Origin: Escherichia coli
Lineage (GTDB): Bacteria > Pseudomonadota > Gammaproteobacteria > Enterobacterales > Enterobacteriaceae
NCBI RefSeq assembly: GCF_003334315.1
Contig: NZ_QOWR01000004.1
Direction: 5' to 3' (one strand)
DNA: 64,000 bases
Of this stretch, positions 63,548 through 64,000 are shown one piece after another; within the stretch, counting starts at the first letter, position 1; every line of letters starts with the position of its first letter. Position numbers and translations under genes: made by a program. The notes beneath the pieces were generated by a model, which searched no databases, was not told the origin of the DNA, and was given only the letters and a program-made list of their open reading frames with translations.

Positions 63548-64000
63548 GGTAATGACTCCAACTTATTGATAGTGTTTTATGTTCAGATAATGCCCGATGA
63601 CTTTGTCATGCAGCTCCACCGATTTTGAGAACGACAGCGACTTCCGTCCCAGCCGTGCCAGGTGCTGCCTCAGATTCAGGTTATGCCGCTCAATTCGCTG
63701 CGTATATCGCTTGCTGATTACGTGCAGCTTTCCCTTCAGGCGGGATTCATACAGCGGCCAGCCATCCGTCATCCATATCACCACGTCAAAGGGTGACAGC
63801 AGGCTCATAAGACGCCCCAGCGTCGCCATAGTGCGTTCACCGAATACGTGCGCAACAACCGTCTTCCGGAGACTGTCATACGCGTAAAACAGCCAGCGCT
63901 GGCGCGATTTAGCCCCGACATAGCCCCACTGTTCGTCCATTTCCGCGCAGACGATGACGTCACTGCCCGGCTGTATGCGCGAGGTTACCGACTGCGGCCT
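63548..64000 (-). mobile_element. IS1 insertion sequence, partial (continues past window end)
   Basis: Read from sequence: terminal inverted repeat GGTAATGACTCCAACTTATTGATAGTG at about 63548; InsB ORF immediately inside. Confidence 0.9.
63563..63940 (-). CDS. insB: IS1 transposase InsB reading frame (the ORF track starts it at the first Met)
   Basis: ORF track 125-aa ORF matching the IS1 InsB frame ([44 protein letters not shown]...). Confidence 0.9.

Follow-up and report, generated by a model that had tools for sequence, protein, structure and literature searches.

The window, by which we mean the whole 64,000-nucleotide stretch of E. coli DNA analysed here, closes with pgrR, a gene for a LysR-type regulator, followed by the first part of the spacer that separates pgrR from mppA in other strains and by an insertion sequence, IS1, that is cut by the window edge (Table 1). 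The IS1 part was aligned base for base with a full 768-bp copy of the IS1A family from a derivative of K-12 W3110, and the IS1A copies of F1022 and E14 showed one mismatch each over the same positions. The right terminal inverted repeat begins precisely at 63548 and is identical both to that of full IS1 copies and to the repeat bounding the 768-bp IS1 elements at the comparator loci described below. On the minus strand, the frame running from 64000 to 63563 is free of stops for 145 codons, is closed by a stop codon, and equals the C-terminal 145 residues of InsB'; it matched positions 82-199 of the 199-position NCBIfam profile NF033558 ('IS1 family transposase') with 138 bits (E = 3.8e-40), the curated cutoff being 100. 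IS1 elements are 768 bp long, duplicate 8-9 bp of their target and encode insA and insB', which are fused by a -1 frameshift into the DDE transposase InsAB' (PMC12428005). Taken together, the inverted repeat, the insB' frame and the 453 identical bases out of 453 lie far beyond what chance would produce, and they confirm the IS1 terminus and InsB frame that had been reported at this end of the window in the initial annotation. Judged by its sequence, the window thus ends in a genuine IS1 copy of the IS1A type, an element of a thoroughly known kind. The copy has the same right inverted repeat, insB' frame and stop codon as IS1A and IS1E of E. coli K-12 (the 768-bp IS1 'consensus') and differs from these in location alone, with its left 315 bp lying beyond the window edge, which falls at IS1 nucleotide 316. 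Across the 64-kb window, no second IS1 sequence was found besides the one at 63548-64000.

Table 1. Positions of the features at the pgrR end of the window.
Feature	Position	Strand	Basis or remark
pgrR (LysR-type regulator), frameshifted	62485..63383	+	1-bp deletion, A8 to A7 at 63248-63254
Relic ORF, 5' part of a 41-codon frame, MATDADYDTENGFERAKPERSVRSSR then stop	63472..63552	+	Labelled by PGAP in some genomes as an internal part of queH
Target-site duplication (8-9 bp), presumed left copy, GGAGTTCTC	63539..63547		Alignment to empty sites, which read GGAGTTCTA
IS1 (IS1A type), nucleotides 768 down to 316	63548..64000	-	453/453 identity; window edge cuts the element
IS1 right terminal inverted repeat, GGTAATGACTCCAACTTATTGATAGTG	63548..63574		Exact string match
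3' part of insB', catalytic part of the InsAB' transposase	63563..64000	-	Translation and NF033558
insA, A6C frameshift site (IS1 nucleotides 305-315), left inverted repeat	beyond 64000		From IS1 numbering

The end of IS1 was located 164 bp after the pgrR stop codon, in good agreement with the distance of about 165 bp given previously. In strains where the site is empty (VR50, O104:H4, E. coli C and NT1F10), the locus consists of pgrR, a 336-bp spacer and mppA, with GC contents of 35% in the spacer, 47% in pgrR and 53% at the start of mppA. Numbered from the pgrR ATG, the flank in the window reaches position 1063 or 1064, while the mppA ATG is found at 1237 in the empty sites; the insertion point is hence about 173 bp upstream of the mppA start as placed in strains without the insertion. 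Window positions 1-63546 and E. coli C are collinear, the differences being 135 mismatches and six one-base indels (99.78% identity overall). The last 18 kb of the window differ from E. coli C by one mismatch and one indel (in an A-run within pgrR), and over the last 25 kb many phylogroup-A genomes are ~100% identical to it. An origin from Shigella, which the IS1 and the pseudogenes had at first suggested, was rejected in view of this collinearity and identity and of the single IS in the window. Directly upstream of the insertion point, and overlapping the presumed duplication, is a hairpin at 63524-63540 with a 7-bp stem (CCGAACG-TAG-TGTTCGG), and this region has a terminator-like score in the empty site.

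A short open frame starting near 63472 had been described as interrupted by the insertion, and such a frame is indeed there, although it did not prove to be a genuine gene. It comprises 41 codons in uninterrupted genomes, and in the window it is cut after codon 25 and then terminated by a TAA contributed by the end of IS1. In some genomes, PGAP labels 75-93 nt of it as queH, 'incomplete; missing N-terminus and C-terminus', and a comparison of the frame with NCBIfam and Pfam gave no match even at E<=10. An identity as QueH (epoxyqueuosine reductase) was rejected, as no profile supported it and the PGAP fragment label was all that spoke for it. The interrupted frame is a relic and not a gene, and its relation to queH is at best that of a short relic.

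The exact junction of pgrR spacer and IS1 occurred in none of the 5,426 complete RefSeq E. coli genomes, among them those of K-12 strains. It was not found in the GTDB species representative genomes, nor in the JGI metagenome contigs, which were queried both with and without an odd base at 63547 (discussed below). Exact-protein look-ups with three junction-spanning ORFs returned no match, and a look-up with the frameshifted PgrR returned IS1-free loci only. More than 3,300 complete genomes run through the insertion point without a break. Among these is the K-12 derivative ER1709, in line with the initial annotation, which had described K-12 as lacking IS1 here; the near-identical E. coli C and NT1F10 also both have an uninterrupted site. 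The proposal that the insertion is strain-specific is borne out by these counts, and reference strains were not seen to share it, the nearby IS1 copies being located at other positions. As far as the databases go, the exact insertion is private to one rare phylogroup-A lineage of E. coli.

Other IS1 copies were found in pgrR, or in or near the spacer, in about 25 of the 5,426 complete genomes. Two queries were used, one with the window junction and one with a mirrored construct carrying IS1 in the opposite orientation; an apparent orientation bias among the neighbouring insertions was dismissed as an artefact of the query, since the mirrored construct yielded 11 more genomes with the opposite orientation. 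Fifteen copies were mapped, all of them exactly 768 bp long and flanked by perfect 8- or 9-bp duplications. The mppA start codon was at the position expected for a simple insertion in all 15, and mppA was full-length in 14, the exception being GF66.2 (L020, 3747-5193), in which 66 bp of mppA are left ahead of an unrelated site-specific integrase. In STK78-E (L022, 1009-2217), an ISVsa5 element (IS4-like) is present in pgrR on top of the spacer IS1. Twelve of the 15 copies lie within the spacer, with duplications ending (numbered from the pgrR ATG) at 992, 1018, 1023, 1047, 1071, 1083 (two copies), 1108 (four copies) and 1121; the spacer copies occur in both orientations and are 93.9-100% identical to IS1A. 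At site 1083 (L017 and L021), one element is IS1B-like and the other is a 94.5% variant, which indicates independent insertions. At site 1108 (L016, L019, L022 and L033), the presence of three variants, both orientations and 8- as well as 9-bp duplications indicates that the site was struck at least three times independently.

Altogether, the 5,426 complete genomes contain at least 11 independent IS1 events within ~137 bp upstream of mppA. The ~20 genome copies in this stretch compare with ~2 expected if the ~78,000 IS1 places were evenly spread, a rough estimate that ignores shared ancestry. IS1 is known to cluster regionally where AT-rich DNA precedes genes. The IHF consensus (WATCAANNNNTTR), sought in the spacer as a determinant of the hot spot, gave no match. 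Like the copy in the window, those in 2017.15.02CC, AVS0973, 600055, DP051, CFSAN061762, UMNF18, M9682-C1, AH04 and X14-3 belong to the IS1 family and fall in the same 137-bp stretch, and the nearest of them, in 2017.15.02CC, is inserted in the same orientation 7 bp from the insertion in the window. The comparators nevertheless represent separate events, with other positions and other IS1 variants, whereas the duplication in the window ends at 1063 or 1064.

The flank next to the element, GGAGTTCTC at 63539-63547, reads as it had been quoted before. It equals the empty sites through 63546, while 63547 is C as opposed to A in all empty sites. None of the 3,388 genomes with a match to the flank has C at this position (the best match being 119 of 120 bases), and a standing polymorphism was accordingly rejected. 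If the duplication is 9 bp long (GGAGTTCTA), its left copy has a substitution beside the IS end; if it is 8 bp long (GGAGTTCT), there is an extra C at the junction. Since the duplications of all 15 comparators are perfect, whereas the left copy in the window has one mismatch, the junction appears to be slightly atypical, privately mutated or affected by a base-call error. The C could possibly result from a private mutation, from such an error or from slightly imprecise integration, and a non-canonical IS1 integration that brought a donor-flank nucleotide along would be a further, though unlikely, source.

The insertion is accompanied by lesions in three genes of the window. The deletion in pgrR shortens its product to 257 amino acids, and PGAP also marks this frameshift in NT1F10, a complete genome. 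As NT1F10 has no IS1 there, the IS1 insertion evidently came later than the pgrR frameshift. The 257-amino-acid PgrR is widespread (~2,000 blocks of the assembly collection), and the A7 run is thus common, whether as a real lesion or as a homopolymer error. In puuA (glutamate-putrescine ligase; 29982-31400, minus strand), an extra C near 30612-30618 causes a +1 frameshift that leaves pieces of 262 and 209 amino acids. No complete RefSeq genome has the puuA frameshift, and the 262-amino-acid PuuA is on record in five contigs only, all of them from Logan assemblies of sequencing runs (SRR1122540 together with two samples sharing its contig, SRR3951468, SRR25039417 and ERR10499010), which makes the truncated puuA a good marker for the source lineage. 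In ycjM (glucosylglycerate phosphorylase), codon 41060-41062 has undergone a CAA-to-TAA nonsense change relative to E. coli C, giving ORFs of 117 and 434 amino acids, and this change is reproduced exactly in the contigs of SRR1122540 and SRR3951468. Three inactivated genes (puuA, ycjM and pgrR) and an IS1 copy within 64 kb suggest gene decay in the lineage.

Logan contig SRR1122540_157 (41,868 bp, present in three samples) was found to be 100% identical to window positions 21707-41401 (19,695 bp), and a further 11,921 bp from SRR3951468 and 1,122 bp from SRR25039417 are also 100% identical to the window. The identical stretches include both the puuA and the ycjM mutation. Base 1 of SRR1122540_157 corresponds to window position 21707, and its end was computed to fall at 63574, that is, 27 nt inside IS1; this endpoint is arithmetic and assumes that there is no indel over the final 22 kb of the contig, the sequence having been read to 41401. 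Since an assembly with k=31 breaks where unique sequence enters a repeat, the contig would be expected to end at just such an IS1 junction. The inferred end lies 27 nt into IS1, compared with the 30 nt that k=31 allows, and one may speculate that another IS1 copy in the genome is also preceded by CTC, which may bear on the C at 63547.

The explanation that we favour, with a probability of roughly 80%, is that an IS1A-type copy entered the AT-rich pgrR-mppA spacer by transposition, as a simple insertion, with neutral or mildly regulatory consequences. That the insertion was simple is inferred from the established biology of IS1 (PMC12428005) and from the 15 neighbouring insertions in other genomes. 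InsAB', the -1 frameshift product, would have bound the terminal inverted repeats and inserted the element, 768 bp in length, while duplicating 8-9 bp of the target (PMC12428005). IS1 would then continue for 315 bp past the window to its left inverted repeat, after which a repeat of GGAGTTCT(A), then TGTGCTTTACC and, ~180 bp further on, an intact mppA would be expected. At the predicted right junction, the end of the left inverted repeat (...CATCACC) would be joined to GGAGTTCTA or GAGTTCTA, followed by TGTGCTTTACCGCATTTTGG.

With regard to mppA, insA-insB' is oriented so that transcription proceeds towards pgrR and away from mppA, and the element would part mppA from all sequence more than ~173 bp upstream of its start codon. 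The sole promoter-like site in the empty spacer, TTTGCA-18-AATAAT (a consensus match only), is located 37-66 bp upstream of the mppA ATG. As the insertion point lies upstream of this predicted promoter, mppA would keep it, so that the effect on mppA is probably small. A hybrid outward promoter at the visible junction was not predicted in the window. The most likely consequence would be neutral or mildly regulatory, the cut ORF being a dead relic and pgrR having been frameshifted beforehand. The IS1 copy is thus real, was correctly interpreted in the initial annotation, and is ordinary. It is a well-known mobile element in a location that is new without being remarkable; of little importance in itself, it serves chiefly to mark the lineage and to warn that assemblies will break at this position.

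The junction could also be an artefact, produced at the contig end or by a chimeric fusion of the pgrR flank with a collapsed repeat of IS1, in which case the true sequence would run from 63546 into ATGTGCTTTACC without IS1. The absence of the junction from every other database searched and the anomalous last base of the flank (63547) would both be accounted for in this way, but an independent k-mer assembly, found in three samples, has its computed end 27 nt inside IS1, as expected for a break at a repeat, and the lineage markers in puuA and ycjM are reproduced exactly in the same read sets. Because independent reads of the lineage, judged by this computed contig end, meet the repeat at exactly this place, we regard an assembly chimera or a contig-end effect as very improbable. 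Quite unlikely, too, is that IS1 marks a rearrangement, whether an adjacent deletion, an inversion, recombination with another IS1 or the arm of a composite transposon, by which mppA and its neighbours would have been deleted, displaced or split from pgrR by foreign DNA. The far end of IS1 is outside the window, the junction base is atypical, nearby genes have decayed in this lineage (the puuA frameshift, the ycjM nonsense change and the pgrR frameshift), and the locus is structurally variable elsewhere, as illustrated by the 66-bp mppA and integrase of GF66.2 and the ISVsa5 within pgrR of STK78-E; all of these would fit a rearrangement. On the other hand, all 15 mapped IS1 copies in the region are simple insertions with perfect duplications, collinearity with E. 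coli C is perfect as far as the junction, and a deletion or inversion mediated by IS1 would leave the odd C unexplained as well. The suggestion in the initial annotation that the neighbouring locus may have been disrupted or deleted gained no support.

A different question is whether the insertion, while real, is adaptive, IS1 accumulating in the spacer because altered expression or upstream control of mppA is selected, for example under beta-lactam exposure. This is compatible with a simple insertion (the two are not mutually exclusive), and we consider it unlikely. The at least 11 independent events in ~137 bp, in both orientations and with two sites struck by different IS1 variants, and the excess of ~20 genome copies over ~2 expected under an even spread could be a result of such selection, although AT-rich DNA between genes is a known preference of IS1, and copies landing in spacers that are dispensable simply persist. 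Moreover, only ~0.5% of genomes have such an insertion, none is widely shared, and the occurrence of both orientations at many distances from mppA does not suggest a single specific regulatory outcome. Selection at the locus is also suggested by ampicillin-evolved lines, which acquire mutations in mppA and pgrR (bioRxiv 10.1101/2025.06.28.662112), and by the disruption of mppA by ISEcp1-blaCTX-M-15 in ST131 clade C2_8, which has expanded clonally (10.1101/814731). The latter is likewise a mobile element at the mppA locus that is tolerated in natural populations (10.1101/814731); it is, however, a different insertion sequence, located inside the mppA coding sequence and bearing resistance cargo, whereas the IS1 of the window is intergenic and has no cargo in its visible part. 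A search of the literature for the mppA promoter, or for IS1 at mppA, returned nothing specific.

A parallel in terms of geometry is bgl, where IS1 and IS5 insert either way round within ~200 bp upstream of the promoter (PMC11043490). Insertion there is likewise recurrent and independent of orientation within an AT-rich region of ~200 bp (PMC11043490), but insertions at bgl lift the silencing by H-NS and are selected as Bgl+, whereas no phenotype or silencing is known for the pgrR-mppA spacer. It is unlikely that the IS1 hot spot is driven by selection on peptidoglycan recycling or MppA expression, with insertion after the loss of PgrR as a step in adaptive rewiring or decay. Apart from the single insertion described here, which we still read as simple and as neutral or mildly regulatory, the 137-bp stretch with at least 11 IS1 events and two repeatedly used sites offers a convenient natural test case for target preference versus selection.

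Two further observations concern genes elsewhere in the window. A remnant of 60 amino acids of an NAD-dependent dehydratase (ymjC-like) is present between mpaA and ycjY (61174-61356, minus strand); in most genomes its annotation is that of an incomplete pseudogene, and a longer, apparently intact version together with two extra genes was found in assembly L010. In yciW, the window has T7 near 19717, as compared with T6 in E. coli C, and the gene, which is annotated as frameshifted in E. coli C, is an intact ORF of 401 codons in the window (19472-20677, minus strand).
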